DNA of 63,021 bases, counting the filler, from Rhabdomonas costata (lineage: Eukaryota), in assembly GCA_019059605.1 (NCBI GenBank). It is 37 parts of 37 records of this genome, joined end to end, with 100 filler letters (N's around TTAATTAATTAA, not from the genome) between each part and the next. Parts side by side here need not be neighbours in the genome. Positions count along the whole stretch, not along the records: positions 35,840 to 37,445 come from JAHMHO010012133.1; 36 more parts are not named here. One strand, 5' to 3'. The notes under the pieces are model-generated. The model saw only the letters and a program-made list of their open reading frames with translations, had not been told where the DNA came from and searched no databases. The position numbers and the translations under genes were made by a program. Positions 8,562-63,010 of the stretch are shown in pieces; position 1 is the stretch's first letter, and every line of letters starts with the position of its first letter.

Positions 8562-10140
8562 GGGTGGTCGCTCTGACCCAGACCATGCATTTGGCGTACT
8601 GGACTATGGATGCCACCCTGACGCTGCAGGAGAAGATGAAGGTGAAGATCTCCACCTCGCAGTCCGCTGAGGCTGCCGTTCCTCAGGTGCCAGGCAGGCC
8701 TTGATGCTTTGAAAATGATCTCCGGGTGGTGAATCGGCTGCCAATGACTTATCTCTACCACCAACACATCACCGTCGTCACCGCCGGGTACACACGACTT
8801 TGCCGTCGTATTCCCAAGACACATGCAACAAATTAGACAAGAGGCATACAGAAACGGTAGTCCAAGTGCATCCGTGTTTATCCTCCGCATTGAGAAGATC
8901 AGGCGGCACGTCATTAATGGGGCGGATCGTGCAGCTTTTTTTTTTCACTCGGTACACAAGGCACGAGCAATTGTTCCAAGAGCAGCCAAACAATGATTGC
9001 ATTGCTATTAATGCGTAGTGCTCCGACGGAGGCCGAACATCATATTTCTCATTACCAAACGTCGCAACGTCGCATTATGCAAAACAAACTCAGCAATGCT
9101 CAGCGCGCCAACAATGGCCAGAGGGTGGGGTGATGCCTCTGGTCGACAACAGAAAAACAGAAGCTGTTCAATTCCTGGAAACTCTGATTTAATTCTTCCG
9201 AAGCAGCGGAAAACGGAAGGAACATCCAAAATACTTTGCAGTAATCAATGACACCTGCTGACGAAAGCTTATTTTGTGTTTTTGAGCAAGTTGCCGCTGC
9301 GTTGTTAAGCTTAGGGGTGGTTCAGTGGGTCCCGCCTCCCTACCATATGAGCTCCTAAAAAGGGCATTTTAGGGAATGCACTGGTGGTTTGGTCGCAATG
9401 CTGATGCATACACAAGGATTGTCGGGGGTGGCGCTGACAGGTGATGTGGGTTGGCCCTGGCCTTCTGGCGACCTCCCATTGCGAAAGTGTTCTGCGGCTG
9501 TGGAACCTGGAGAAGGACGAAAACTACGTCCTCCACCTCACCGGGCAGGACGAGCGCGATATGGAAAGTATGCGCAGCCCTGCTCATTGGCTAGGCATCG
9601 GTTACTTCGCAGCCAACCCTCCAACCAAAGGTCTTCCACAAATCGTTTTGTTGTTGAAAGTTCTGCCCTGCTGGTGGGGATGTCCCTGTGTTCCTTCTGT
9701 GTTCCTTCTCACCTTTCAATTGCGTGCTGGTTTTGGAAGCAAGCGGATATCTGACACGTGTTATCATCGGTCAGGGGCCCCAGATAGCTTGCCCCCAGTC
9801 AGTACGTCGTTGTTTCTGACTTCCTTTTGGCCTCCATCTCCTTCGTGTGCATTCAAAAGAATTTAAACCAAGTCAGAGCGTTCCGCAAGTGGCAATAGTT
9901 GTTAGGAAGGGCCGGATTAGAATTGAAAAGGTCAGAGAGAGATGAACTTAACTTGTTTTTGTTGTTGAGCTGGGACTGGGTTCCGATGTTTTTGGCAATA
10001 CATCGGAAATGCTGAAATTCTGACCCCCTAGTGCGCATCCGTGACCCTGTCCCCGTCTCCTGCGTACACAGAGGACCGGAAGGGTCTCAGTGAGAAGCTG
10101 AGCTGCGTCTCGTACAACCCCAGGAAACGGGTTCTCGCAG
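8562..10140 (+). CDS. IFT140: Intraflagellar transport protein 140, WD40 region, three internal exons
   Basis: Exons 8562-8686, 9441-9567 and 10072-10140 are GT-AG and in phase. They read VMWVGPGLLATSHCESVLRLWNLEKDENYVL...EKLSCVSYNPRKRVLAG, matching the IFT140 motifs LR.WDLE..ENY.L and C..Y.P.K..LAAG. Confidence 0.88.
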
Positions 10141-10396
10141 GTGTGCNNNNNNNNNNNNNNNNNNNNNNNNNNNNNNNNNNNNNNNNNNNNTTAATTAATT
10201 AANNNNNNNNNNNNNNNNNNNNNNNNNNNNNNNNNNNNNNNNNNNNAAAATTCAATCTGCGTTCAAATGCGGCTGCGGGAACAGCAGTACATTGGTCTAA
10301 AGACGCCCTTCCGAAAGGTTCTGGTTTATTCTGCTGCTGCATATCTGCAGGGGCGTATGTATCCACAATAACACGCTCACACAAGATGACACCCAC

Positions 10397-11385
10397 CGTC
10401 TGGTGCCGGAAGGTGCTGGGGTCGACGTCTGTAGGCCTCAGCGAAGGCTCCAAGGTGTGCAGTAGGCGGTCCATGGGCATCGTGGAGATCACCGCGTCGT
10501 ACGCCACGATGGAGCCGTCGCGCAGCTTCAGCTTCTTTCCCGGAAGTACCTCGGTGACCGGGGAGTTCATCCGGATCTTCCCCGAGGGCAGCATCGCGAA
10601 CACGGCGTCCCAGATCTGTCCCGTGCCGTTCATCGGGTACCTGCCCGAGCAGCGTTATTCACAGTAAAAGTGCGATGGTCGAAAAATTGAATCTTTGGCA
10701 CCCGGTATTCCACCATTTGGAGCGATTAGCGAAGTGCAGGCTGCCACATCTCCAACAAAAGCAAATAGACGCAAAAAGGCACGACCCGCAAAGACCGGCG
10801 GAGGACAGATCCGTTGCAGAGCAAAGACCTGCCCAAGTACGCTTCGGAAAATTTCCCGCGGTGTTTCCTTTGCTTTCAGGCCTTGCCATCCTCCGCATTA
10901 CAACAGAAAGGTGAGCTCCCACAAACGTTCGGATTCGGGCAAGCCGTTCTACATGTTGGCCAGAGCGTCCCTATCAGCTTGAACCTGATCCTGCACTCCT
11001 TCAGCCATCACTCCCAACCCCAACCGAGAGAGAGGGAGAGAGAGGAGTTGCACAGCATCTTAGGATATCAAAAACCACCGCAAAGCCGTCACCGCGGTTT
11101 GCGTTGTACTACGTCGCCACCCCATGCCCTCGGTGGAAACGGCCCATTTGGAAAGGCCCGTTTTGGATATCCCCCCCCCACCATGTCCTCTCATCACAGC
11201 GCAGCGCACCGGAACATCGCGTTGGGGCCCCAGCTGCTCTGCGCCTTCTTCAGCAGGGTGTTGGCGACAATGTCCCGGACGTTCAGCGTGGCCACGCGCT
11301 CGCCCACCCACACGCTGTTCATCAGTCGCGCCGGGGTGGCCCACACCTTGAAGTTGTACGGCAGCAGGAAGGTGTCGGCCAGGCC
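10397..11385 (-). CDS. GLF: UDP-galactopyranose mutase (eukaryotic UGM), two internal exons
   Basis: Exons 11385-11210 and 10640-10397 (GT-AG) read GLADTFLLPYNFKVWATPARLMNSVWVGERVA...WGPNAMFR|YPMNGTGQIW...YDAVISTMPMD. PYNFKVW, GERVA, WGPNA.FR and GTG.IW are eukaryotic UGM signatures. Confidence 0.92.
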
Positions 11386-11952: not shown

Positions 11953-13322
11953 TTGTGTGGGGGGGTGCCTGGCCCGGGCCAAGGCCGCCCTGGCCAGCAG
12001 TGGGCTGGACGTGGTGGTGCCTCAGGTGTTCCCCGCGCTGTGCCGGTCGGAGGTGGTAGTGATGGAGTTCGTGCAGGGAACCAAGGTGTGACCCAAGATG
12101 GGCACTTGTCATGTGCATCTCCCTCCCGAAGAAAGCGAAAAGAAGACGACCATGAGGAAAAAGTGAAACAAAAATATCGAAGCGAAGAGGCTCGGTCGGG
12201 TGTAACGACACGGTCATCAGCTGCGGCCGAAGCAGCAAATGAAAGCGTATATTTTGAAGGAAAGGAAAATTACTGCGCTTCTGCAGCGGGAAAGTTGGAG
12301 ATTAATGTGCCTCTAGCGCAAAACGCCGTCGGCCACGGAGTTGCCAGCGTCGAACAAGTCACTCAGCAGGTACGAGGTTGACGAAGGTACCAGAGTGGCC
12401 ACCAAAACTCCGCAGCACCTCCCTTCGTACCCAACGTGAAAAAGGCATCCCTGCTCAGCTCTGGTGTTTGCTTGATGGGGTTCGCTTTCGATTGAACTTC
12501 ATGATCCGATGCACACATCAATAAACGATTGGCCGTTAAGCCTCCAAGTTGCTGGTTTATTCTGAAAATATTCGGTTGGATGCTTCTGTGAGGATGGCAC
12601 TGCACTGTTACCACGTGTCAGTGTCCCTCGCCAGCCGATATACTTTTGCCGTGTCCGCGATGTGCTATGGCAAGCCGCGTTTCCCTTCCCTTAACCTCTC
12701 TCCCCCCCCCCCCCCCCTTTTTTGTTAGGTTACGGATTACTTCCGTGGGGGCGCTTCGGGGGCGTCCTTGGCTCAGCGGGAACACTTCATGCGGGAAGTC
12801 TGCCAGGCCGTGGCATTCCAGCTGCACATCGACGGGTGCTGCCCTGCTCCGCAAACACACTCCCGCCCTACATATCTTTTCCGAGGATGAAATGGTACTT
12901 GGTGCCGCCGTAGTTCCCGGCTGGATGCCAACCGACGGAACTTTGCTTGGGATGGTTTTTCTTGTTGCTGGTGAGCCCACTCGTCTTTTCGACTTCTTCG
13001 GGTAAACCTGAAAAATGACAAGGGTTAACTGTGGATTGTTGGGAGTTTTCGTTTGTCGCAATTTTGCGCGGTTTTTCGCTGCCCTTTAGCCTCAAAGAGC
13101 ATTTGTTTTGGTAATTTCAGGTAATGCTACACTCGCTTTCTTGCTTCTCCCCTCCTCAACGGGGTGCATGTTTTCCAGGCACTTCAACACAGATCCCCAC
13201 CCGGGCAACATCTTTGTGCGGGAATGCTGCCGCGACGGTGGCGGGGGCGAGAAGGCTCAGCCAGTGCTGCAGCCCGTGCTGCTGGACTGGGGCTTGTGCA
13301 AGACCCTTGAGGACAGCCGAAG
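11953..13322 (+). CDS. ABC1/UbiB (ADCK) atypical kinase, three internal exons
   Basis: Exons ~11953-12085, 12729-12835 and 13179-13322 read VVVPQVFPALCRSEVVVMEFVQGTK|VTDY...FQLHIDG|HFNTDPHPGNIFV...VLLDWGLCK. DPHPGN and LLD.G are the family motifs. Confidence 0.92.
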
Positions 13323-14257
13323 GCATCCAGAACCCACCCTGTTGGATCCCACTGCCCCCTGTTGCCGTTGTGTTTCCTCAGGTTCCTCAGGTTTTTGGTG
13401 CGCACCTCTGATACCCTTTGCAGCAGGGGCTTTGTGCCTCTGCCGTCTGTGCGTCTGCGTCGACTATGTGAGCATAGAGGGAAGTTTTGTCTGCCTTCCC
13501 GATTTTTCTTTTTGCTTAGCAGGGTTCTCGCGCGAGAACCCTGCTAAGCAAAAACAAACNNNNNNNNNNNNNNNNNNNNNNNNNNNNNNNNNNNNNNNNN
13601 NNNTTAATTAATTAANNNNNNNNNNNNNNNNNNNNNNNNNNNNNNNNNNNNNNNNNNNNCAGGTTCCGCTGCAGCCCGTGCTGCAGGGGAGGTGAATCAC
13701 GGGTCACCGTTGAAGTGATCGCAATTGAAGACCCGCCCAGGGGTTAAGTGGTGGGCTTAGGAAAACATGTTTACAAATATTTTAGATCACTGCACTCACG
13801 CCTAATTCGCAGCGTTCCGGAAGGGGGGGGGGGGGGCGAACCCGCTACCTATGCTTTGAAACCTCTGGTAAAGGTATGCATTATACGGTGACGTGGGCAG
13901 AAAGCCGATTCGATTGTGCCGAGGACGCTGCAACTGGCGGATTCTTTCCCGGACATGATGGACTCTCTGCTGAAGAGCGTTGCGGCCAATCTGAGAGCCC
14001 TGAGAATACACTGACAATGTGCTGAGCTCCTGCTGGCGAAAGATTCAGCAATATGCCCCGACACCCTCTGTAAGCTGCTTCCCGCAATACAGTGAAGTCT
14101 CCAACAAAAGTTAACAGTTGGGTCATATCAGAACGTCCTACTCCTTGCGAGTTTACCGCTGCCGCACATCATAGCGACGTTTTAGTACACTCGAGATTGC
14201 GTTGCCGTTGTCTTTGTGAGATGTTCGCTGAAACACCCTACAACGCTCGCAAGGCAC

Positions 14258-15451: not shown

Positions 15452-16539
15452 CTCCGGAAGGGGTTCTGGGTTCTCTGTGAACCACGCTGCCGCCGGACCG
15501 AGGTCTCCGCACGACGAAACCACTCCCTCCGGGTATTCCGAGGCAATCTCCGAAAGTGTGAGCTCCGCACTCTGGCCCTAAGCGGAAAGCATTGGTAATC
15601 ACATTCTCCAGGAAACACTGACGTCACATAGGAACCCATCGACACTTAGCTACACTGTTTGTCATGTACAGGTTTCGTTTTTTCTGAAGGCCTCCCCTAT
15701 TTGTTTCGGTGAGACAAAAGAGCAACCAACGCAGCGTAATAAAGTACCTCCACAGCGTACATGCAGAAATTAGGCGCGAAGAATACTGAAAGGGAGCAGG
15801 AAAGACCCTGGGACTCAAAGCAGAAAACTGAAGGGACGTATGTTGAGAAATTATGGTATACAATAGGATAACCCAAACATTGCCCACCCGGCCACTGTGC
15901 ACTGTGAGGTAGAAAAAGAGGAAGGCAATAATGAAACTCTCTGCAACCTTGCTCTTGACTAGGCTCACTCTCCAAAATATTTAGTTGTGCAATCCGAACA
16001 GTGTTCGGTGATTTTCGTGCCCATTCACTCGAGAAGGCCACCCCACGTCACGACCACAAGTCAACGGATCGCTTCAGGTTAAAAGAAATGACAATGAAAA
16101 GGATTAGTAGAGGCTCTTACCTTCTTTACTTATTACTTATGTTAGCACAATGGAAGTTGGCGGGGTGGAGGAACCCGTTACCACTGGTACAGTTACCACC
16201 ACAAAACCGGTACCCCCCCTCCCCAACTTCCATTGCACCGTTATTTTTTTGCTTTTGCGTTACGTTTACGTACCTTAACGTCACAACATGAGCACAGCAA
16301 AGGAATGAAGAAATGCGGTCCAGGGCACACCCGGTCTTGGCCAGAGTCGAGGGCCTGCTTGACAGCCTCGATGGAAACCCGGGAAAGGTACACGATTTCC
16401 TCGATGGTGGCGGGCCTGCCCAGCTCAGCCAGGAGCGTCCTGGCCTCGTTGGGCAACGCCTGGGCAAGCAGGCGGCGCTTCATTGCCTTCCACGTGAAGG
16501 CCGTGTGGAGGTCGCTGAGAGTCTGCCACACATCAACCT
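15452..16539 (-). CDS. Hypothetical protein, two exons
   Basis: Exons 16539-16331 and 15577-15452 are GT-AG and in phase: VDVWQTLSDLHTAFTWKAMKRRLL...DSGQDR|GQSAELTLSEIASEYPEGVV. Codon bias is coding-like. Confidence 0.55.
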
Positions 16540-18778
16540 CTAAGGCAAAAGAGCACAGCGATGCGGTGCCGAGGTCCATTGTGGGAACAGTCCAAAAACC
16601 ACCCAAGAACCAAAGAAAACAGCCAACCCCACACTTCGGTAACGAACCGAGTGATAGCATTTCACATGGTGCAGAGAGAATTCTAATGATATAAATAGAT
16701 GAGAGCAAAGATGACCCTTTGGAAAATGACAAAGGGTAGAAAATTGTTTGGGTTGTACGTAGCAGTTCAATGGACTCTCTTCCGCAGGGCCTCAATGGGA
16801 ATTGACAAACGATGGCCGAGGGCGCACGATGGCTGCGATGACCCCCCCCCCTCAAAAAAAACCTCAACAGGTCAGCGAAAATGACCCCCACACACACACT
16901 CTCTCTGCACTCTGCAAAGAAAGAAAAGAATAATTAGGACATCGTACACAAAAGTTTGGTGTTGCCCAACACNNNNNNNNNNNNNNNNNNNNNNNNNNNN
17001 NNNNNNNNNNNNNNNNTTAATTAATTAANNNNNNNNNNNNNNNNNNNNNNNNNNNNNNNNNNNNNNNNNNNNCCGACTACCCCCAAAAGAGGGGGGGAGG
17101 AGGGTCCACCGAAAAAATGATTACACTCAGTTTTTTTTCACAAATTTGTCCCACTTTTTCAGTTTTTTTTTAAAAAGAAATGGTCAACGGCTGAAGCTGA
17201 AGCTGACAGAACAGTTGCGCCAATAAGAAAAAAAGCAGGGCATAGTGGGCGGAGGGTTGCCTCGGTGGATTGGTCCTAAGTCCAGGTCCACGGGGCGCAG
17301 GGCGAAGGCCTCCCGGCCATTCTCGCGCCGCCACGGCGTGCTTGCCGGGGCAGCGCTCGCCGTAGACACCATACCGCACTCTACCCTCGCCCCCCCGACG
17401 CTACCTCCGAGACCTTCACACTCGGAGAGGTCTCCTCACAGAGAAAACAGAGAAAACGGCGCCAGCAGCAGCTGCTTTTCCAAAAGCAAGCAAGACAACC
17501 GAATCCGAAAACGCGATGGCAGGGTGAGAAAAGCAGAAGCAGGAAGCACTGCAGTCACCAGAGAAGCGAGAACGGTGAATGGAGGTAACGGGAGCATCTC
17601 TTTCCTACCCCTACCCCTCCCACAAAACTTGAACATCAAGGTGAGCGTAGAAGGGACTGCCTAGCCTGGGATGCAAACCTTAGCTGGTGGAACGGACCAT
17701 TTGCCGTGCCAGGGATATAAAGAGAACAGTTTTCCAAAGAGGAGAATATTCTGTGTGTATTTAAAAAAAACTGAGGCGACCCAATCATTTTTGCGGCGGC
17801 TCCGTTCAGCGTTAGCGGGGGGGTTAACAGAGTGTGCAGAAATACCTGAACAACGCGCACAGGCAGCGGGGTGGTGTTCAGTTTCGAAACAGAAACGGCA
17901 AAAGGAACTCGGGGACAGTGTGTGTTGGCGGGGAGGGGGTTGAAATATTGACAGGCACTTCAAGCAGGGAACCTAAAAACGGAATATTTACAGCGCCAAA
18001 ATCACAAGACACCAGATGAAGCAAAGGAGAAGCGCAGATCACGGGATCACGGGACAGGACAGCAAAGGCACGCGCATGCAGAGAACCCGCCACAGCATGG
18101 AAGAACACTTCCCTTAATAGACGGAATCAATGGAGCCCATGGGGGGCACACCGGGCACACGGTGTGCAGCCCCAAGACCCCAAGCAACAAAACGTCAAAA
18201 CCGGGGGCGTGGGGGAGCGGGAAGTGAAGGCGCAACCGGTGGGGAAAAAGCACCCGACAATGATGAGAATCACAGTGTGGTAGTTGCACTGTTTGAGAAG
18301 GGAAGGAGGGGAACCGGAAAGCCACACGGGAGCAGGCACCTGTCCCATTAGATTGGAGTAAAGGATAGTGCACAGAGACACGGCACAGAAAAAGCAGCAG
18401 ATGGAGAGGCCTGAGGGGAAGGCACCGTGGCGCTTGTGGCGGCTGCCAGGCAGTTGGCGGTTGCCAGACAAAAGGTCTGTGCAATCACGCTGGAGGCGGA
18501 AGCCTTACCCAAGTGCCTCCTCCAATGGGGGTGGGAATAATGACGTGCAACTCTTCGTGCTTTTCGGAACACGGCTACAACTCAAGAGGTTACCCCGAGT
18601 AGCAGCACCAACACCACTAAAAGCCTTAACCGCTACCCGCCAGCCAACACAACACAACACAACCCCCAAACACCCCACNNNNNNNNNNNNNNNNNNNNNN
18701 NNNNNNNNNNNNNNNNNNNNNNTTAATTAATTAANNNNNNNNNNNNNNNNNNNNNNNNNNNNNNNNNNNNNNNNNNNN

Positions 18779-34133: not shown

Positions 34134-35630
34134 TGTTGTTTTGCGAAGAAGAAGAGAACTTCAGATGCATCGCAGCTGTTCGGGTTGCATCCTCCTCCAA
34201 CAGCACACAGCTAACACTGCGCAAAACAGGGGAAGACTCACTGCTGGCCAACAACTCAGTCTGGCAGCGCGAAACCGCAGCCGATCCACAGGCATCCACC
34301 TCGCAAGCTCGGCGGATCGCCGCGGGTCGAGGAGCTGACGACACCGACAGGTCGTTCAATGTCACAGTGCTCGCAGTACGTGGGAAGTCCGCGGGGTCGG
34401 GCAACGGCGACGGGGACAGTGACAGAGAGAGATGCGAGGAGCTGAAGGATTTCGGGGAGCCTGCAGACTGTGCAGAAATCGAGTCGTCTGAGCCGTTCTC
34501 CTCTCGGGGCCTTTGAAAAGGGAAGAAGAACCGCGGGCCACCAGACGCACCTCGGCGGAGGGTTCGCTTGTCCTCTACAAGAAGGCTCTGGAGGGCACCG
34601 ACGCCTTGTCTCCGGCCACGTATTTCAGCCAGTACGTCCAATGCCCCGCCCGAGCCAAGCGGGACTCGCTCGGGAAGAAGCCCGAAAATCAGTTTCAGGG
34701 TGCCACACGTCCGGTCGGCTTCAATCACCGCACGAAGACCCTCGGTTCGAGCCACGGTGGGCACATTCGCACAGGGAATTTCCACCGAAGCAGCAGGGTC
34801 TGCCCCAGCGCCAGCACTTTGCTCAGGATAGGAGTCAGAATGTGGGGTTCCTTCCGAGTTGACTCGGGGAAGGGCAAAATGGACAGCATGGCCGGCCTGC
34901 TGCTTTGAGTTGGAAGGGGAGGTTTCCGGAGCGGCAGAGGAAGTAGCCCTCTCCTCCGCGAGTAGCTGCCTGAGCACCCTTAAGCTGCCATTGCGCACGC
35001 CAAGGCACAACAGTACATCCACTCCGGGAGATCCGGGGTGACAAAGAAGGCCCGGGGCGGACCTTTCCGCAACGGCCGGGCCAATTCTTCGGCGCCTTGC
35101 AGGACGCCGGATGTTATTCACCAGCAACCAAAGGGTGCGCACACCATGTCCCAGCTCCGCCACCACAGACAGGGCGGCCTTCGCCGAAGCCTCCTCGCAT
35201 GGGGTGGCCACCGTGGCGGACACTCCAGCTGCCAACTCAGCGGAACGAACAGATGATAAGGGAGGGGGTCCGGCACCCTGGAAAAAGCTCACCAGCTCAG
35301 GCACAGGACGGGTGGGCTCAGACAGAACGGCAGCCCGGGCAGTTGCACCACCTGCTGGCGACCGAGGCGGGGAAGAAGACCCCGTCAGCGAGGGGACTAT
35401 CATCGAGGGCACGGCTTCCGTAGAGCGCCCACACCCCTGGGAATGCAGCTCAGCACCCTCAGGGTGGTCATGCCCGAGCTCGGGCCCCAGACTTTTCACC
35501 AGGCCGAGCACAAGCTCCAGCGCTTCGTACTGCTTCCCTTGGGGGAGGCTCAACATGGACGACAGACCAGACTGAGGAAGTGTGGAGGTCAGCATGGTGC
35601 CCAACACACCCGATGCACACCCATCCCTTC
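34134..35630 (-). CDS. Large exon of a hypothetical Ser/Pro/Ala-rich protein
   Basis: About 1.5 kb of uninterrupted frame, preceded by a polypyrimidine tract and AG near 35631. No family recognised. Confidence 0.6.
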
Positions 35631-35889
35631 TTGCAGAAAAAAAAACAAAAACAAGTTAAAAGAGAAGGCCTAATGTTGAAACAAATGCTGCCGCTCTTAT
35701 AAATCCACAAAAACACTCTACAAAATACCACCCAACCCCNNNNNNNNNNNNNNNNNNNNNNNNNNNNNNNNNNNNNNNNNNNNTTAATTAATTAANNNNN
35801 NNNNNNNNNNNNNNNNNNNNNNNNNNNNNNNNNNNNNNNGTGGGTGGGGTGTACCGCAGAGTAGTAGGAAAAATAATTTGTTCCTGTAC

Positions 35890-37396
35890 ACAGTGGTACT
35901 TGAAGGCGTTGTAATCTTCGTTCTGCCAGTCATCCGGATTAGCCTATTAGTACCTGCTCCTAATGACGTTCTGGCTTGCAAACAGATACACCTGAGGAAC
36001 TAGATCGAAGTTCCGTGAGATGGCCAGGAACAGTGTTGGAAACAGAGTCAAATCCTTCTCACTTCCAAAGCTTGGATGCTGTTCCCATGCAATATTCATG
36101 AGCGGGTAACATATCGCGCTCACCACTGGAAGTGGACTCAACAGCTGTGCGAGAGGCGCACAGTTGCTTGATAGTACCAATACAATGAATTGCTCCACCA
36201 CTGGAAGTGGATCAGTCTCTTTGCGTTGGAAGTGTGAGTGCGTGAGTCGAAGCACAATTACCTCCGGATCAAAACGCACCACCTTGTGGTTAATGTTCAA
36301 TTTCTTCATGATGCTCTCAGTATGGGCACACTGAAATTCATACACCACAAATTGGCCATCGTCATAAACGGCATGACCTTGGATTCACTGCAAGCTTCTT
36401 GAGTTCTATGGATGGCTCTCAGCAAGCCCAATACCTGCAAACTAGGTGGCCAGAGGTTTGCACTCGCATCTCCGGGCTCGATACGCACGTGCTACTGGGG
36501 AACTGTATTGTTTGGTAGACTTTGCTGACATCTACACTCAACATCTGCTTTGGCGACTCCTCAGCCTAAATGTGCACTGGCAGTGTGGTCTTGGGAGCTC
36601 CGCACACCAAACAAATGTAGTCATCCGCCTGCATAGTGGCGTCCACGAACTCAGATTTTCGAGATCGATAGAGTCCATCTCCACAATACTCTACCACACT
36701 GACACCGTGGTTGGCGTGACACACAGTTTTCGGTCGATGAATCCCAAATTAACGACCTCTCACTTTTCACGACTGCCTTGAAACGGAGGATGCCGAACGG
36801 TGTGGTGTCCTCTCCCTTCTGCTCTTCCCGTGCCATCTCTCATCCTCCAGCTTCTTGAGACATGTGGAGGCCCAAAACAGGCTCTCCCGCTGGAGTCACA
36901 CGATGAATGCGGCAACGAGCGGAGTTTGATTTTTTCACTGAGCTATCTACTTCGCCGTATGTCGCCGTATCTGCGGTCTCGGCGATTTTTCCATGCAATT
37001 TCTAGCTTCAATGCTCCGCTATTTTTCTTAAAGAGTGGGAAGCTCTCTCTGGTATGAGTGTCGTCTGCTGGATATGGAAGACGCTGAGAATTTCCGAGAC
37101 TTCTGTGATGATGCAGGAGAGTGTGAGGTGAAGCTTCCACGATCCCTATGCTCTTCTCGCTTCATTGAACTATGCCAATATTTGCGCCGAGTCTCGAATT
37201 CTAGATGCACACTGAAGATCTGCGCAACCTTTCGGTGAGTAGAGCAGCTATTTGCGAAGGTTTGATCGACCGACATTCACAAAAGATTGTATTGCAACCT
37301 CGTCTGCACATTGGAGGACATTGGTGTGGACTCAAACGGAGAGTGACTCACGTGTCAAACTGCATTGGTTGCGGCTATGGATCCACTGGTGGCGAC
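35890..37396 (-). mobile_element. Decayed Ty3/Gypsy-like LTR retroelement: Gag C-terminus, protease remnant, Dam-like adenine methyltransferase
   Basis: ~37015-37396 aligns at nucleotide level with the Gag tail at ~40243-40630, including the PMQ(F/L)DT motif. ~36600-36830 gives protease-like pieces ILRFKAVV / GFIDRKLC / GDG in shifted frames. 36060-35890 gives EKDLTLFPTLFLAISRNFDLVPQVYLFAS...RY**ANPDDWQNEDYNAFKYH. Stops and frameshifts occur throughout. Confidence 0.7.
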
Positions 37397-39251
37397 CAAT
37401 GCAGTTTGACACGTGAGTCACTCTCCGTTTGAGTCCACCACAACCNNNNNNNNNNNNNNNNNNNNNNNNNNNNNNNNNNNNNNNNNNNNTTAATTAATTA
37501 ANNNNNNNNNNNNNNNNNNNNNNNNNNNNNNNNNNNNNNNNNNNNGTGTTGTGTGGGACAAGCAGGAGCGAGCAAGGACATCCCTGTTGCATCATTTAAG
37601 ACCTCTGCTTGACTGCATTCCAATCTTCGACAGCGTGCACTTTTTCGCCACGATGTACATCACCGGACCTCATGAATTGGGAAAAGCGCACATATTTTCC
37701 AATATCTATCGCAACTTGAAGTCAAAGTGTAACATGAAGTTTTATATGGTTTAGCTTAGAGCATTTCTATCTGAGAAGCTTGGCGGTGTTTATATTCACA
37801 TTCTTTTTGGATTTAGAGTTGAAAAGCAAAGACGAAAACCAGCAGCTTTCTTGTAAAGCTTAGATATTCAAACACTGACATTACGTACCATTCAAAAGAG
37901 AATGTTACAAGAGCTCCAAGTTCTCCTCGTAGACAAATTTGCTCAAGTTGTGGCGAAGCTGTTGGATGCAGTAGACATTCTTCTCCGCAAACTCAGTGAA
38001 AATGACAAGGTGTTTGTAGTAATCTGTATTAGCGCTTTTTGCGACCACTATCAAAATGAAAACGTTGGCAAACCATCTCCCCTGATATCGGGCCTTTTGA
38101 TATGCTTCTTCGCAATTTGCCTTACGACATTATACCGCTGGCGTAAGGACCAAGTGTTGCAAGACTGCATTCTTCAATGCCGGACACCACTCATGACAAA
38201 ATCTCAAATCTTATTCGTCTTCACCGAAACCAGCACTCGCTGCACCATGTAATCATCATTGTAAGTGCAAATGACCTTTGGTTGCTGCGCACACACCAGG
38301 GAGTAATTGCAGCGAGAGAACAAAAGTTCACATCTTCTTCAAAGGGAAAACACTCATATTCATCTGAGTACTACTTCCTTCACGCAGGGAACTGGAATAG
38401 AACCGCGGACGTCAGTAACATGAGAGAGATTGATTGTTTTTTTTACTAGAGATTGTTATTGCGGACTAGAAATTTGTTTTTCATCAATATGTGGGCTGCA
38501 AGAAAGCTGATTCCCAATGTGGCCTCCGACAACAAAATATCGCGGTTTCTTTCGATGATGGTTATTCTGTGTCCTTGACAAATGCATATTCGCTTTTTAC
38601 ATTCTCTTCTGAAACGTGCGTGTTTCCTAGTTTTGTTGCCTTAATTTTATTTTCTGTTGCCCCAACGTGGACAACCGCAGCTCAACTGGAACAGTTCCCT
38701 TTGGAATTGCCCTGTGCAACAACGGTATATGACCTTAATGGAAATACTGAGTCAAATACGCGTGGTAACCAGGTAAGACCTACCGGCCAGAGCCGACTTT
38801 TTGTTGTTGTTAGGAAGAAAACGGCCCTTTTTAAAAGAGGTTTTTGTATATTTGTAATGCTTTTCCACTACCTGTTTTCATGGGGAAGAAATTCTTTTGA
38901 AAGAGAAAAACGAGCGTACCACCGCAGCCCCCGTTGTCCCCAAGACTCGGGGCGCGCTTTTTTCCGAAACAACGCTTCTTTAAACGGGGGTAAGGCCAAA
39001 CGGTACCCAAACGAGACCGTACTCAAAGCATGGCCAAAACTGAGAAATGGGCTTCCCACGAGCCGTCAGCCAAACTTTTTTGACGCAAGCGGTTCGAACA
39101 GGAAAAATGTGATTTTTTCATCGGCTTTCAACTTTCAACCCCCCCCCCAACNNNNNNNNNNNNNNNNNNNNNNNNNNNNNNNNNNNNNNNNNNNNTTAAT
39201 TAATTAANNNNNNNNNNNNNNNNNNNNNNNNNNNNNNNNNNNNNNNNNNNN

Positions 39252-40857
39252 AGAGACATGTTGGAGAGCGGCTCCTCCATTAATCTGTGCGGGATTACCG
39301 CGGCCGAGGAGGCAGAGGCGGAGCAGCCGCCTTGCGCTTTAGAAAGGTTCGCTGATAACTCGACTTGTGAAACAGCACAGTGGTCATAGCCATAGTCCAT
39401 CCCCCTGGAGTTTCTGTTCTTCGTATCTTGTTTTACAGGGGACCGGTAGAGCAACTGAACCTCCACGTCGCGAATTAGGGAATCAGGCCGCTCCACTTGC
39501 CTTATTTCGTTGCAAAAAAAAAGAGCCCTCAGCTTAATTGGGTTAGGGTCGCTCCAACTTAACGGGATTACCAAGGCTAATTGCAATCAATGAGTGGACC
39601 ATCTCAGCCAGGAGGGACCGTTTACCTCGATCAGATCATCGCGCAATCAACGGCCGCTCCGCTGCAAGCGATGCGGCGCATGCAAGGTGAGATGCTTGCC
39701 GCGGAGCAGATGTTTTCCGAGCGCAGCTCAGAGCATCTCATCGAGCAGTTGGCATCCTCATCACAGGAAGACCAGCTCATGAAGCTGAGTGAGAAAGACC
39801 CTCAGTTCCCGGCCTACACAGGCACCACGCATCACTTCCTGCATTGGATCCTGGAGTACCAGTTCAGGAGAGCAACGGAAGCTGCCGGATGCATTGGCCA
39901 TCCAGTAAGCACTCATAGCTTTGGGGAAAATGTCATCTGGCTGTTCTCGAGTGACAAGGAGTTTGAGTCCTGGGAGCTGTTCTGCCAGGAACTCAAGCAC
40001 AAGTTTCTCCAGCACACAAATGAGTGGAGTAGATTGATGACACCGCCCACTGGAGCAGCGCAGTTTTATCCTTCATTGACGCTGAACATGATCAATGGTT
40101 TGGACCCCTACATTCATCGGAAAGTGATGAAACACCAAAAGCCAAGCACCCTCGACCAAGCAGTTGAGCGCGCGTGGGAATCTTTACGCACCACGCAGCC
40201 CCTCTACCACAACCTACGGCTGCCCCGTACGCGCCGTTCGCGTCGCCACCAGTAACTCAAGGGCCGCAACCAATGCAGTTGGACACGGTGAGGCACTAGC
40301 CGCTCGAGTCCACACCAATGTCCTCCAATGTGCGGACGAGGTCGCAATACAACGTTTTTTCGGGAATACATGTCGAGAAAACCTTCGGAAGGAGCTGCTC
40401 TTCTCACGGAGAGGTTGCGCAGGTCTTCAGCGTGCAGCGAGAACGCGAGCCTCGACCTGGAGATTGGCAGAGCTGCAGGAAGAGAGAAGAGCATATGGAT
40501 CGTTGCCTCTCCACCTCCAACTCGCCTGCCTCCTCCAAGAAGTCTCGGAAATCCTCAGCTTCTTCCAGCTCCATCAGACGACACTCAGAAAAGAGAGAGC
40601 GCCCCCATCTTCTAGAAAAAGAGCGGAGCAGAGTAGTTAGAGATAGCAGGGACAATGATCGCCGAGACAGAAGAGAAAGCGACAGAACGCGAGGAGGAGA
40701 GCGCAGGGAGAGCACAGCAGCATTGTTGACATCAGTCACGACACTGTCCACAGATCAATTGGACGTGGCCTCTACCTTTGACGAGGACTGGTCCCATCCA
40801 CCAGCGCCCATGCCTTTGCTCATTCTTTCAGTGACAGTTTGAGCCACCACACAAACC
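39252..40857 (+). mobile_element. 5' part of a Ty3/Gypsy-like LTR retroelement: putative LTR end/PBS and frameshifted gag
   Basis: ORF from ATG 39590 has the retrotransposon-Gag pattern FPAYTG....FLHWI / SWELFCQELKHKFL / INGLDPYIHRKV...PSTLDQAVERA. In another frame it continues GPQPMQLDTV. Upstream, ...CACA-G-TGG at 39376-39383 fits an LTR-end/PBS junction. Confidence 0.8.
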
Positions 40858-53400: not shown

Positions 53401-53785
53401 TTGCAGGGCGCAAAGTGATTTCAAGGCAAAACACTTCCGAAACGATCCCATCGTAGTTTGTACTGATTTGTAAATTTCGGCTCTACTTTCCAGGCTTTGG
53501 TTTGGGACTGGGACTTGGATGTATTTGCATCTGGATGGGTTCGAGACGAATCAGGCGAAACAGATTGCACCTGTTATTCCGTTGTTTTCATCCTATCGCC
53601 CTCTTTCACCCTGCGAAATGTGTGTGCCAAAAGCTGCAAACATGAAAATGACGTTGATTTTGGTTTGGTTACTGTCTGAGAGATGTGCATTTTGTTCACT
53701 TTGTTATTTATATTCCCGACCTGTCCTGTCATGCGCGTTCTGGGCTGTATTACTCATCAGCGTTTTTCTTGTGGTTGGTTCGAGG

Positions 53786-54490
53786 ATGCTGAGCGAATTC
53801 CTGGAAAGGGTGGAACACCTGTGGCAGAGGATGACCCTGCGGTGTCCCCCTCCCTACATCATGCCTTTGCATGAGGAGGGGAACAGCCGCCCGCAAAACT
53901 ATGCAGTGGTTCTGGGGCAGCTCTATCTTTTGGATGGGGAGGATCTTACCCCTGGGGCTTCGGCACCGACGACGGCACCGACGAGCTCGACTTCCTCATC
54001 GTCCACCTCACCTCTGGAGAACCTCAAGCAAAGATTCTCGCTCATCGGCAGCCGCGGCAGCTCCGGTCGGCCCACCTCCCCAGGCACGCCTCCTCCTTCG
54101 GGCAAGCCTGCGGCCAGTTGCCCCAGCTCCCTCCCCGGGGAGGTTTCTGGAGACATGGCTAAACTTCGGGTCCATGTCTCGGGGCTGCTGAGATTCACCT
54201 ATCGCGGGGGCTTTGCGAGGATCGCTTCCACGACGATTACCTCGGACACGCACTGGGGATGCATGCTTCGAACGGGACAGATGCTCCTGGCCAACGCCCT
54301 GGTGACCTTGTGGGGCCTTCGAGCTGGCCGGAAGTCGCCCAAACCCGGGTTTGAATCCGGCTCTGCGGTGGTGCTTGCCGGGGGCTCGGAGGACTCTGCT
54401 GATCTGTGGCGAGTGGCCCAGCTGTTCTGTGACACGCCGGATGCGCCCTTCTCGGTGCACAACATGGCCATCGAGGGCACGGCGTACGGC
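53786..54490 (+). CDS. ATG4: Autophagy cysteine protease ATG4 (peptidase C54), 5' part
   Basis: FTYRGGF...TSDTHWGCMLRTGQMLLANAL...LFCDTPDAPFSVHNM carries the catalytic GCM motif. Likely start is ATG 53786. Confidence 0.95.
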
Positions 54491-54691
54491 ACAAACCACN
54501 NNNNNNNNNNNNNNNNNNNNNNNNNNNNNNNNNNNNNNNNNNNTTAATTAATTAANNNNNNNNNNNNNNNNNNNNNNNNNNNNNNNNNNNNNNNNNNNNG
54601 TGTTGGGTGTGTGGTTGTTTTTTATATGGTGCCCAGTGTTGGATGCTAGCCTTGGAGATGTGCTGTGATATCCGTGGGATTCTCCTTTTCA

Positions 54692-58802: not shown

Positions 58803-61800
58803 ACTCCTGAACGACTGGTGAAAAGCTGCGGATCCAGAACAAACCCTGGATCATACAGAGGTGTTTTTGTGCGCGCGAAAAATGAGTGGAGAGATGCCTT
58901 TCTTCAGTTCCTTCCTCGTGCACTCCATGCCGCCGCACCAGCAGAGCTGCCAGTATGGCAGGGATTGCCGCGAATTCGCGGTGCGAAGCACATGGAGGAG
59001 GAGGAGGGGGGGTGTTTAACAGTTTAAACTCTGTTGAACGTTCAGAACACTGCATTCTGTGCCTTTTTGTTGGGTATTTCTAGAGGTCTATTTTGGCTGG
59101 TTTCCTCATGGGTTTGAATGGACGAGTTATACAGATTTATTTTAGGGTAGAGAAAAGTGCCACGGCAGCCACAACGGTCGGCTGAGGCCGGGACATTGCC
59201 TGCGGATAACTTTTCCGGCCATATGCATGAAAAGCTACATAAATGTGTGGGGCGAAGCATCCCGCACCACCCTCCCAAGATCAATCCCATGTCAAAGCGC
59301 AACGGAAATCCGTATTTCGCATCAAATTCCTCAAATATCTCTAATTCCTCAATTATCTTTCTTATCTTTCTGATCAAATTTCTATGAATCCTTAAAAAAA
59401 AACCTCAAATCTCGTTTCAGGCTCCCACAAAGTCCACAAAGTCCGGTTGACTTTGTTTAACCGTGAGCCCCTTCCCATACTCTCCCACGTATCCTCACAA
59501 CGAAGTCGCTCCCTTTAAACATCCCTTTCCCCGAAACTGAAACCAAAGCTCGTAGCGCGTCGTGACAGTGACACGCTGTAGCTGCGCTGTGAACAAAAGC
59601 AGCAGCTCAAACCNNNNNNNNNNNNNNNNNNNNNNNNNNNNNNNNNNNNNNNNNNNNTTAATTAATTAANNNNNNNNNNNNNNNNNNNNNNNNNNNNNNN
59701 NNNNNNNNNNNNNGTGTGGGGTGGTAGAAGTGAATACTGCAGACTCACCTTCCCAAGAAGGCGCTGGCCTCGGCGTGGGCCGGTGTGTGTTGCTCTGTTC
59801 TTCTTTGTCCCGATCTCTCTTCCTCTTCCCTCTCAGCTGTGAAAACGTTAGAGAGGTGATCGGGTTCTGTCGTAACAGTTTTGTCCGGTCGCCTTTTCCT
59901 CCACTCACCCACTCAACCACCCATTCAGGTGGTGTCGGGGTTCTGCGACATCTGCGGGGTGCAGTACCCGCGCAGCCAGTCGCAGTTCTGTGTGGGTTGC
60001 GGCGCGAACCGGATTTCCGTGGTGCGGCCGAGTGGCCGTGGGATCCCTGCGCGGTGATTCTGCCGAGCTGGTGAGCTGGTGTTCCCGTGTTGAGTAACGA
60101 GTGCAGGGGTTGCTGTACAGCACTCCCTGTTTTGCATAAGGACCTCTCGTCATCGCTGCAGCTGCGGCAGTGAGGCGGGAGTAAGGGTTGCCACCTGCTC
60201 GTCTTTTTTTTTTTTGCCTTTGTAATCTTATTGTGTCCTTTGTTGGGATACCCCCCACTGCTGTTTTTTCTTCTGATTTCTGTACAAACACCGACCATCA
60301 CTCCGCAGCTCCAAGCGGCTCCTCCGTCTCTCTGCCTCTGCGCATAGCCATTGTGCTCAGTTTCTGCTGAGCCAACCCGTGTCCGCTTGCAACAGAAGGC
60401 ATAGGGGATTGAGGGCCCCGCTGGGGATGGAGGGAGTAGTTGTGTTGCAAATGCCGCCGTGGAGTTCCGTGTCCCGCCCCAATGCCGTTGCCACTTCCTC
60501 TTTTGTCAATACTGCTTTGCATGGGCGTAAGCGTGACCAGCTTGCGTCTCTCCGTGTTTGTACAGAACGGTAGCAGGCAGAGGCAGATGGAAAGTAAGGG
60601 AAGTGTTTCGGGAGTGCGTGAGGTGAGAGTTGATGGACAGAAGGGGAGTTGCGTCAACCCTCGTTGATAATGACACGGCCTCTGTCTACCGCCCTTGTTG
60701 TTCCAGTGTCCTGTCTAGTATCTGGATGGGAGAGGGCAATGTTTTTGCCAGTCGATACTTCAGAAGGTTCAGAATTCATATGCAGTCTTTTTTTAGATGG
60801 GTCCGATTTCGCTGAACTGTTCTCAAAGATCAATGATAAACCACAGCGCATTCGTATTTTGGTCGTTGTATGATATAATTGCTCTTTTCTCTCGCCCTTT
60901 CCTTTCTTGTCGCGTTCGCAATTGCACCAGTACCGTTTTCCGCTGTCTTCGTCTCTCCTTTCAAATGCAGGGCGCTCTTTTTGTACTGATTTCTTCGTGT
61001 AAAATTCACTCTTCGCCCCCCACCCCACCCCGCCTACAACTTGATTCCGCGTACTGTGCTCGGGGGGTCGCGTCAACCCCACTTTGACGACGCCTCCTTC
61101 ACCCTGACCCTTCTGTTTCTCTCTCTCTCTCTGCTTCTTTCTCTGAACCTTCCTCCCCCTCCCATTTTCCCTCCGCCTTCCGTCCACCACGCGACTCACC
61201 AACTCCCTCTCCGTCCGACCTTTGCTTAGCCAGATGTACACCTCGGCCTACGGAGCTTCGCCCCTGCGGCTGGGGACAACCTCTGCCCTCACCAGCACAC
61301 TAACCTACCCACCACAACNNNNNNNNNNNNNNNNNNNNNNNNNNNNNNNNNNNNNNNNNNNNTTAATTAATTAANNNNNNNNNNNNNNNNNNNNNNNNNN
61401 NNNNNNNNNNNNNNNNNNTGTTTGCGTGATGCTGATTTGTGCCTTTTTCTTCATCGAGTGGCATGCTTGTCTCCAGGCCGAACCTCCGAGTGAGGTTCCT
61501 GAAACGGAAATGCCGATGTCAATGCCACATCATTTTTAGGGATTAGTTTCTCCAATAACTGAACCCTGGCTCAACATCGTGACTTCGGTTACACCCTCCA
61601 GATAAAGGGTAAGATAAACTCTGCTTTTGCACCCCAGATGCGTTTCGCTCCCTGGGTTTGAAGTAGGATGCGTTCAGTTCAAATGGTGGAGGGCAGGGTA
61701 GCTGAGGCGGTAACGTAGCCTGTCTTTGCCACTCATCAATTTGCGTTCTTATTTTGGAGGAAATCGTTTTGCAACCTTCCCAGCGATCTGTCTGTGCGTT

Positions 61801-61865
61801 CTTTTTTGTTGCGGCGACTGCCGAGCGATTCGCCCACCCACGTTGCGGGGTTCTTTGTGGAAGCA

Positions 61866-63010
61866 ATGGGGCAAGCTCTGAACATCCTCCATCTCAACGA
61901 AGAGGAGGGCACCACGACCCTCTTCCTGGTCCGCCATGGGGAGTCGCAGAACAATGCCCTGGGTGTGTCCGGGTACCTGAAGTGGGTCATCGACCCCCCG
62001 CTCACCACCACAGGCATCCGGCAGGCCTCAATCCTCCACGAAAAGCTCACCGCGGTGGACTTCTTCCGGACATTCCAGATCAAGAAGGTGTACTGCAGCC
62101 CTTTGACCCGCGCCCTGCAGACTGCGCACTTCGCCACCGCCCCGCTACCGCTGGTGGTGCTGCCGTTGATCTCTGAGCGCCGGACGTCGTGCGGGGATGT
62201 TGGGCGGCCTTTGGCCGAGCTCAAGTCGGACCCCTTGCTGGGGGAGGTTGTGCCCCGGGTGCGGTTCCAGGGGTTTCCCAGCGACACCGAGAAGTGGTGG
62301 CCTACTGGAGAGGCTTTGAGCTTCCTCAAGGCGGAGACTCACAGTGCGCTGCAACGGCGGGTGGAGGGTTTCCTGGCATGGGCCCGGAAGAAGCTGGCCA
62401 GGAAGAATGTGCTGGTCGTGGGCCACTCTCATTTCTGGCAGCAAGTCTGATGCTGGGGAGGGAAGGGGGGGGGTGCTTTTCTCTGCTGTAACTGTACTGT
62501 AAAGCCAGAAAAAGACGGGGAGAGTATATATCCGGCACATTACCGTGAAATAGCAAAAAATAAAAAATAAAAGGAGATTGCTGCGTCTCGCACCCCTCTG
62601 CCCTAATTCACAGCCTTCCTTTTTTAGGCATTCCCTCACTGCTTCTGTTTTTTGTGTTTTTGTGAGGAAGGAAAGCCGTGCGTCGGGAGAGTGGAGGAAA
62701 GGGATGAAATGATGCCTCGTGGACCTCGTGGATTGAATCCAGACCCGTTGCTTCCGCGGATAATACAACGTCCCAGTTACCCAAACCATAAGCCAGTGTT
62801 TTTTAATGAGTGCGCCACACCGTTCTCTCTGTCTTCCTGTCGATGCTTTTTTTCAGGTGGAGATCACGCTTCTTGGGGATGAGGCTGCCGCGAAGCTCTC
62901 CAACTGCGCCATGCTGCAGCTGGTGTACGACGTGAAGACCTCGACCTTTATCAAGGTGCAGTCCGTGATTGAGGGCCTGCCCGCTCCCCTGGACCCCGCC
63001 AGCTTCCCTC
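61866..63010 (+). CDS. Histidine phosphatase (phosphoglycerate mutase family), two exons
   Basis: Exons 61866-62444 and 62857-~63010 (GT-AG) contain LVRHGES, DPPLT..G..QA, SPLTRALQTA, LVVGH and LSNC. The MGQ start suggests possible myristoylation. Confidence 0.95.

Follow-up and report, generated by a model that had tools for sequence, protein, structure and literature searches.

A pseudogenised Dam-like module in Rhabdomonas costata, probably the remnant of a Ty3/Gypsy-like retrotransposon Pol

The decayed module and its protein relatives

The window analysed here is a 63,021-base stretch of Rhabdomonas costata DNA (assembly GCA_019059605.1, GC content of the window about 49%) in which 37 contigs, each about 1,606 bases long, are set apart by spacers of the form N44-TTAATTAATTAA-N44. 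Contigs that adjoin in the window are not genomic neighbours, and as the window is thus a set of joined contigs and not one locus, only positions 35840-37445 (contig A) are physically linked to the feature described below, a decayed Dam-like domain whose sense strand is the minus strand; a sister contig (contig B, 39252-40857) has its sense on the plus strand. On contig A the minus-strand frame 36384-35842 runs for 181 codons with two stops only, the two being adjacent, while the other five frames hold between 5 and 12 stops. It consists of a family-specific N-terminal extension followed by a Dam-like core, which is cut off by the contig end at 35840 (Table 1). An earlier note, made from the sequence alone, had placed here a peptide of a Dam-family N6-adenine methyltransferase (MTase) carried by a long terminal repeat (LTR) retroelement, and this peptide is indeed present on the minus strand: EKDLTLF begins at 36060, KYH ends at 35893 and the NAF triplet lies at 35910-35902. 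The explanation that we favour, with a probability of roughly 0.8, is that a Ty3/Gypsy-like LTR retrotransposon left here a non-functional piece of its C-terminal 'DAM module', the element being a DAM-LTR, the name given to Ty3/Gypsy elements with a DIRS-derived DAM by Fernandez-Moreno et al. (bioRxiv 10.64898/2026.05.21.726589, May 2026; hereafter the preprint).

For protein searches the frame was read through with X at the stops (P0001). A phmmer search of P0001 against 1,835,955,588 representative proteins gave six matches at E<=0.001 (3e-15, 2.6e-14, 2.3e-10, 6.9e-07, 1.3e-05 and 1.6e-04), all of which align over the stretch quoted in the earlier note, so that the peptide is more than a chance reading. 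The six relatives are short open reading frames (ORFs) of 106-187 aa that have (I/V)DLFAS, HQLPRYY and AEGYNAFN(F/Y)xW in common. Together with the single open frame they indicate that the stretch once coded for protein and truly belongs to this small family. When a profile of the seven sequences (profile A1, the window copy plus its six relatives) was searched among the longer proteins of a 5.8-billion-cluster collection, it matched P0008 (641 aa, E 2.4e-61), P0009 (395 aa, E 1.9e-57) and P0010 (699 aa, E 1.9e-3). The 'longer' and 'near' searches with residues 395-641 of P0008 returned P0008 and P0009 only, and two metagenome scans and one viral scan found no DNA encoding the relatives. By tblastn, residues 392-554 of P0008 fall on 36375-35896 of the window with an E-value of 7.7e-20.

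P0008, P0009 and their cluster-mates are integrase proteins. In P0023 (757 aa) the Pfam matches are Integrase_H2C2 (residues 50-109), rve (125-226), SH3_Tf2-1 (379-427) and a sub-threshold Dam (623-694), the SH3 being followed by a low-complexity linker and by a conserved stretch that starts at about residue 484 and leads to the Dam match. A DDE integrase (H2C2/rve/SH3) and the domain share one ORF in P0023, P0011, P0031, P0008 and P0014, but not on the window contig. Every long relative has the order integrase H2C2-rve-SH3, linker, DAM, stop, and in P0023, P0031, P0024, P0027, P0012, P0028 and P0009 alike the protein ends exactly 73 residues after the NPPW motif. We associate the domain with an LTR element because the long relatives encode it together with a Ty3-type integrase, within one and the same ORF, and in this respect the earlier note, which had assigned it to an LTR-type family and not to DIRS elements, agrees with the longer proteins. 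From its integrase (H2C2, rve and an SH3 of the Tf2 type) onward, the Pol of an intact element would then be expected to run through a linker of low complexity into a family-specific stretch of some 140 aa, and to close with a core of some 130 aa and a stop.

The intact core is marked in the family by IDLFAS, GYNAFNxxW, LY(I/L)NPPW and VAPHWP, which bears out the expectation that intact copies would carry DLFA and NPP(W/F). Among 40 family proteins D(L/M)FAS is found in 25 and NPPW in 20, many of the others being fragments that stop short of these sites. The window copy retains 18 of the 29 strongly conserved columns of the family and is dead, a pseudogene, with its Asp replaced in YLFAS, two stops, a W to C change and the loss of NPPW (Table 1); it had been taken as a decayed copy before, and so it is. 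The NPPx site had at that time been thought to lie beyond the contig, but it is inside, where the copy reads IIFPTTL and thus lacks the (D/N)PP(Y/F/W) of catalytic motif IV. The contig ends 17 bases past IIFPTTL, and about 70 residues at the end of the domain are absent. It should be noted that P0008, which represents its cluster, departs from the cluster-mates P0023, P0013, P0024 and P0012 in having IELFAS for IDLFAS and, at the same place, NHPW for NPPW, and some copies of the otherwise intact family would therefore already be altered in both motifs.

The DAM module opens with the conserved stretch of about 140 aa (residues 484-620 or so of P0023; 36375-36080 of the window, minus strand), whose motifs are WDLN, DPF.IYYFQT, RVR.DPEVTVLQLPPPP, CMGLVLS.DC and PVWE. 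This stretch has no Pfam family, no hhalign alignment to the DIRS-type protein P0010 and no usable Atlas match.

Homology and activity of the Dam-like core

P0010 is a DIRS-type protein that has reverse transcriptase (RT) together with RNase H, and its C-terminal domain shows IDLFATRLNHQLPRY, NAFVVHW, YIFPPF and VVAPFWP. In a BLASTP comparison the intact core of P0024 matches P0010 with an E-value of 1e-19 (36% identity over 134 residues), and a family profile from which P0010 was left out aligns by hhalign to residues 504-593 of P0010 with a probability of 97.4% and an E-value of 1.1e-11. The hhalign alignment begins at profile column 139 and leaves the N-terminal extension unmatched. Judged from these alignments, homology of the domain to the DIRS 'MT' domain is solid. 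The idea that the extension might be a remnant of a DIRS RNase H was set aside: the BLASTP alignment of P0024 with P0010 does start at WIVAAHIPG, but that of hhalign takes in nothing ahead of the Dam-like core, and the Atlas offered no usable match.

Homology to the DIRS MT domain is also what would be seen if the DAM block were a fragment of a DIRS-like (tyrosine-recombinase) element, nested in or adjacent to the gag remnant of an LTR element. The contig, on which no integrase was detected, would suit such a fragment, as would the Euglena group of the preprint, which is described there as a mixture of DIRS elements and LTR elements between which exchange was recent. We nevertheless regard this origin as improbable. 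Residues 13-100 of P0001, which make up the extension (for example FDPEVIVLRL), align with the integrase-linked P0008, P0009 and P0023, and the extension aligns with P0003, P0006 and P0042 as well, whereas the DIRS protein has nothing to match it. Furthermore, the relatives carry a DDE integrase upstream of the domain, and the RT and RNase H that a DIRS element would have ahead of it left no signal: neither these nor a recombinase were matched by Pfam in the three minus-strand frames of contig A.

The core of the DAM module also points, more distantly, to phage Dam. The Pfam family Dam (PF05869) was matched by 11 of 14 relatives with E-values of 0.0022-0.057 and scores of 13.5-18.1 bits (17 bits for P0009) over profile positions of about 17-81 of 169, and missed P0011, P0042 and P0039; the six short relatives gave no PF05869 match in the Pfam scan. 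A profile search of this kind had been proposed as a check, and its outcome is divided in that the window copy has no match at E<=10 while most of the relatives do match, though under the gathering score of 28.1 bits. All five intact proteins searched against TIGR01712 ('phage N-6-adenine-methyltransferase') matched it at E 0.011-0.11 (12-15 bits), and all five matched phrog_111 of PHROGs ('DNA methyltransferase') at E 1e-5 to 4e-3, phage Dam being the only MTase family matched across the three libraries (Pfam, NCBIfam and PHROGs). In a tblastn search of P0027 against 50,697 phage records there were 11 weak matches (E 0.2-1), of which all seven with annotation lie on DNA/adenine methyltransferase genes, one of these genes being a bona fide member of PF05869 (E 3.7e-49). 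The family profile aligned by hhalign to three phage Dams, this bona fide member among them, gives a probability of 89.6% and an E-value of 1.9e-6, a flattering value since the phage rows were preselected as the best tblastn matches, and to one phage Dam alone, again preselected by similarity, 7.5% and an E-value of 0.0047. The motifs are in register, with DLFAS against D.AA(S/N), NAF..W against NA(L/I)..W and NPPWS against NPPYS. When the family profile was searched against PDB sequences, the sole match was a DUF4827 protein (E 0.079). We take the affinity to phage Dam to be remote and consistent across searches, and the core of about 130 aa would accord with a homologue of the DIRS 'MT' that is only remotely related to phage Dam (PF05869). 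The earlier note had called the domain a Dam-family one, decayed in this copy, and its identification as a Dam-like or DIRS-MT-like domain is supported by the matches of the family profile above.

Several points weigh against our explanation. The window copy itself has no match to a Dam or other MTase family (E<=10 in Pfam, E<=1 in NCBIfam and PHROGs), and its direct BLASTP match to P0010 reaches an E-value of only 0.079; the assignment therefore rests on a chain from the window copy to the family and from the family to DIRS MT and Dam. In this last link the Dam matches of the relatives are under the curated cut-offs (28.1 bits for Pfam, 97 for TIGR01712), and the preselected phage sequences flatter the hhalign E-value. 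The AlphaFold2 models made from 13-row alignments are poor, with a mean pLDDT (predicted local distance difference test) of 35.1 for the 283-aa module and of 47.2 for the 189-aa core (predicted template modelling score, pTM, 0.42), and Foldseek of the core model against the PDB found nothing at E<=0.001; its best rows (E 0.2-1.6) are mostly S-adenosylmethionine (SAM) methyltransferases including RlmJ, PCIF1/CAPAM and T4 Dam, and are not counted as evidence. The relatives are not independent, as they comprise two clusters at >=90% identity and a few short ORFs, and the intact family is known here from protein ORFs. That the DAM would come last in Pol is suggested by the ORF ends and by the usual Ty3 order. 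Finally, catalysis is putative: in the account of the preprint, expression of related domains (DIRS and DAM-LTR) in dam-deficient Escherichia coli did not raise N6-methyladenine (6mA), and Iyer, Zhang and Aravind (2016; PMC4738411) group the DIRS1 MTase domains with PCIF1 and regard them as likely inactive.

These last two reports bear on what the domain of an intact element would do. By family resemblance it may be expected to methylate adenine, and a Pol-borne domain of this kind could N6-methylate adenines in the new insertion or in the replication intermediate of the element itself; alternatively it might recruit a host 6mA system. In either case 6mA would keep the copy in permissive chromatin, as in the model put forward in the preprint, where DAMs are proposed to place 6mA on RNA:DNA replication intermediates or to recruit the host AMT1. 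Against this stands the possibility that the domain of the intact family is catalytically dead, or is an RNA-directed, PCIF1-like nucleic-acid-binding module and not an active DNA adenine methyltransferase. Both reports would fit that possibility, as would the FPPF that the DIRS-type P0010 has in place of NPPF and the presence of PCIF1/CAPAM and RlmJ among the best Foldseek rows, none of them significant, of a model of low confidence. The integrase-linked proteins speak the other way: most of them keep the Asn of NPPW and the Asp of (I/V)D(L/M)FAS (NPPW is found in 20 of the 40 family proteins, as stated above), and the preprint reports higher 6mA on DAM-LTR insertions than on other LTR elements, E. 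gracilis included. On balance we hold an inactive or RNA-directed domain to be unlikely, with a share of the probability that is by no means trivial. Because the DIRS-type protein has FPPF and the integrase-linked family NPPW, the active and the inactive view may each hold for different lineages.

Upstream DNA, the sister contig and the rest of the window

Upstream of the module in the sense direction lies a spacer of 550 nt and beyond it a post-gag-like stretch, with a fold-back at the contig end (Table 1). In the earlier note the spacer had been read as a protease remnant, on which reading the element would have the order Gag-PR-Dam-(RT), with PR for protease. The spacer has no open frame and shows no similarity to the relatives above that of reversed-sequence controls, the ORF at 36651-36839 with its protease-like LIWDSSTENCVS has no PDB relative, and the protease was rejected for want of any Pfam or PDB match. 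No gag, protease, RT or integrase was matched by Pfam at E<=10 in the three minus-strand frames of contig A and the three plus-strand frames of contig B. Two candidates were dismissed: an OTU match on contig A (Pfam E 0.045), which is weak and was treated as chance, and remnants of an integrase, an SH3 or an RT on either contig, for which sensitive tblastn scored no higher than reversed-sequence controls.

The post-gag-like stretch holds 5-6 stops in each minus-strand frame. Its counterpart on contig B (40242-40709) begins at the stop codon of a gag-like ORF, which in Pfam reaches Ty3_capsid with an E-value of only 0.054. The 'gag tail' of the earlier note is thus supported indirectly, by a nucleotide identity of 78% to the part of 39252-40857 that comes just after the gag-like ORF, and gains no direct match to a gag profile. 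The similarity between the two contigs ends abruptly 550 nt before the domain, the tails scoring 20 against a shuffle mean of 19.0 (sd 3.0). After its gag-like ORF contig B has a plus-strand frame (40300-40839) that runs without a stop over 180 aa, in which Arg and Ser are abundant (RRHSEKRERP, RDSRDNDRRDRRESDR) and for which Pfam gave no match; the counterpart of this frame on contig A is full of stops. Contig B also has a 48-base stretch that matches the contig A fold-back in inverse orientation. The fold-back is possibly a real hairpin and possibly an assembly artefact.

Contig A therefore combines a fairly well preserved DAM block with a post-gag remnant that looks older, the two being separated by 550 nt where some 3 kb of Pol would be expected. 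Taken at face value this could be a true new Gag-PR-Dam-(RT) architecture, or a recurrent non-autonomous gag-DAM family without Pol: the DAM block and the post-gag-like sequence ahead of it share one orientation, no integrase separates the two, and the preprint has another lineage in which DAM lies between integrase and RT, and chimeric elements in Euglena. We think this highly improbable. All long relatives read integrase (IN), SH3, linker, DAM, stop, and for this reason contig A is not read as a Dam between protease and RT; no protease profile or PDB match was obtained, the spacer and post-gag stretch have no open minus-strand frame, the match to contig B, which bears the gag, breaks off abruptly, and contig A ends before any RT could appear, with a fold-back that suggests trouble in the assembly. 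The order Gag-PR-Dam-(RT) proposed before is thus left without support, since the domain follows H2C2-rve-SH3 in all long relatives and the contig carries no protease, RT or integrase signal. Instead, contig A probably stems from a copy that underwent internal deletion, rearrangement or faulty assembly. A deletion or rearrangement within an old copy, which would have brought the DAM to lie 550 nt downstream of decayed post-gag sequence, seems most likely; a nested fragment or an assembly join would look the same in the present data. A bolder version, to which we give little credence, would have the gag tail, spacer and DAM of 35840-37445 represent a recurrent Pol-less (or PR-DAM ordered) derivative family devoid of RT, RNase H and integrase, and the parental integrase-linked family a divergent DAM capture missed by screens at Pfam thresholds. 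Were it true, the module would be of use to an element mobilised in trans.

Elsewhere in the window an Rfam search of its whole length gave no matches. Pfam was run on the 132 stop-to-stop ORFs of >=110 aa, among which five have matches at E<=0.001, all to eukaryotic host-type domains (Table 1), as would be expected of a flagellated eukaryote with a highly fragmented assembly. A Sigma70_r3 match in the minus-strand ORF 16244-16933 (E 0.00037, under the cut-off) is marginal and was taken as chance. The same probably applies to a weak similarity found by tblastn between the integrase part of P0008 (residues 1-81) and the contig at 8540-10146 (31% over 81 aa, E 0.019), which was treated as such. 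At 34135-35655 on the minus strand an open frame of 507 aa, rich in Ala, Ser, Pro and Gly and with no Pfam match, spans a whole contig.

Table 1. Features of contig A, contig B and the remainder of the window, with strand and supporting evidence.
Feature	Position	Strand	Evidence or remark
Pseudogenised 'DAM module', probably of a DAM-LTR-type Pol (contig A)	35842..36384	-	phmmer, tblastn, stop counts, conserved columns
Extension segment FDPEVIVLRL	36273-36244	-	window copy
Extension segment FIVLVLSSNC	36189-36160	-	window copy
YLFAS, degenerate (I/V)D(L/M)FAS (D to Y)	35974..35988	-	family alignments
Adjacent in-frame stops TAA TAG	35944..35949	-	family alignment; relatives have Y(Y/F/C)(T/S)
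YNAFKYHC, family GYNAFN(F/Y)xW (C for conserved W)	35890..35913	-	family alignment
IIFPTTL at site of LY(I/L)NPPW (catalytic motif IV), motif lost	35857..35877	-	alignment columns
Spacer, 550 nt	36385..36934	-	no open frame, 5-7 stops in each
Post-gag-like stretch	36935..37396	-	blastn, 70-88% (78% overall) identity to contig B 40242-40709
Fold-back at contig end	37321..37443		arms 37321-37372 and 37392-37443; 52 nt, 94% complementary, 19-nt loop
Gag-like ORF, 224 aa (contig B, unlinked to the module)	39581..40252	+	Atlas, nearest named clusters Retrotrans_gag / Ty3_capsid, score 0.93
IFT140 beta-propeller fragment	9438-9863	+	Pfam E 3.2e-09
Amine oxidase fragment	10247-10654	-	Pfam E 3.8e-07
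ABC1 fragment	13090-13557	+	Pfam E 3.1e-04, under cut-off
ATG4-type Peptidase_C54 fragment	53474-54499	+	Pfam E 7.8e-24
His_Phos_1 fragment	61719-62447	+	Pfam E 1e-21

Relation to known systems

Dam-like domains in Ty3/Gypsy-type elements are already known, though only from a preprint, and the window copy adds a decayed member. The preprint describes five DAM-LTR lineages, and its account includes a DAM-LTR/DIRS group of Euglena gracilis with chimeric architectures, and some elements that combine chromodomain, DAM and DNMT. The earlier remark that no such element was known from euglenozoans has thus been overtaken. Full-text literature searches for 'DAM-LTR' and for Euglena retrotransposon adenine methyltransferases returned only this preprint, and a search for Ty3 LTR retrotransposons of E. 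gracilis returned it together with one unrelated essay. As a discovery the present case adds little, as the kind of element is in the preprint with a euglenozoan case included and the window copy is dead. What may be of more use is that a family with a clean integrase-SH3-linker-DAM-stop order and NPPW scores under the Pfam and NCBIfam thresholds, so that screens with strict cut-offs may undercount such elements. The Asn of NPPW, kept in the LTR-borne family and not in the DIRS-type protein, bears on whether such domains are active adenine methyltransferases, and the conserved extension of about 140 aa in the module matches nothing known.

Like the DAM-LTRs, which are Ty3/Gypsy-type elements with a DIRS-derived Dam-like domain and a conserved Asn-Pro-Pro triplet, our relatives have this triplet in a Dam-like domain, which they combine within one ORF with an integrase of Ty3 type, and the preprint too has a euglenozoan host. 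The window copy differs from them in being a decayed fragment without integrase or RT. The relatives reach E-values of 0.002-0.06 against Pfam Dam here, where the hmmsearch threshold given in the preprint is 1e-5, and the integrase-linked family may or may not be in the preprint's set. The DIRS1-type 'MT' has the same order of motifs (LCP..F..IC, IDLFA(S/T), HQLPRY, NAF..W, Y.xPP(W/F) and VAP.WP). In DIRS elements, however, the domain is described as following RT/RNase H (order RT/RNase H/MT) in elements without protease and integrase (PMC2685390; PMC6338049), whereas here it follows a DDE integrase. The single DIRS-type protein compared has FPPF where the LTR family has NPPW, and the LTR family has in addition the conserved 140 or so residues ahead of the core. 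Phage Dam (PF05869/TIGR01712) is alike in motif order and in how the motifs are spaced between the 'D.AA(S/N)' strand and NPP(Y/W)S with its following helix, and unlike in that the matches are below the cut-offs and confined to part of the profile, and that the domain is fused here to a retroelement Pol. Chromoviruses, lastly, differ in the fold and presumed activity of the domain concerned, and no chromodomain was found in the relatives by Pfam, but they too are described, in the preprint, as carrying an accessory, chromatin-related domain C-terminal to the integrase at the 3' end of pol, which is the position that the ORF ends suggest for the DAM module.

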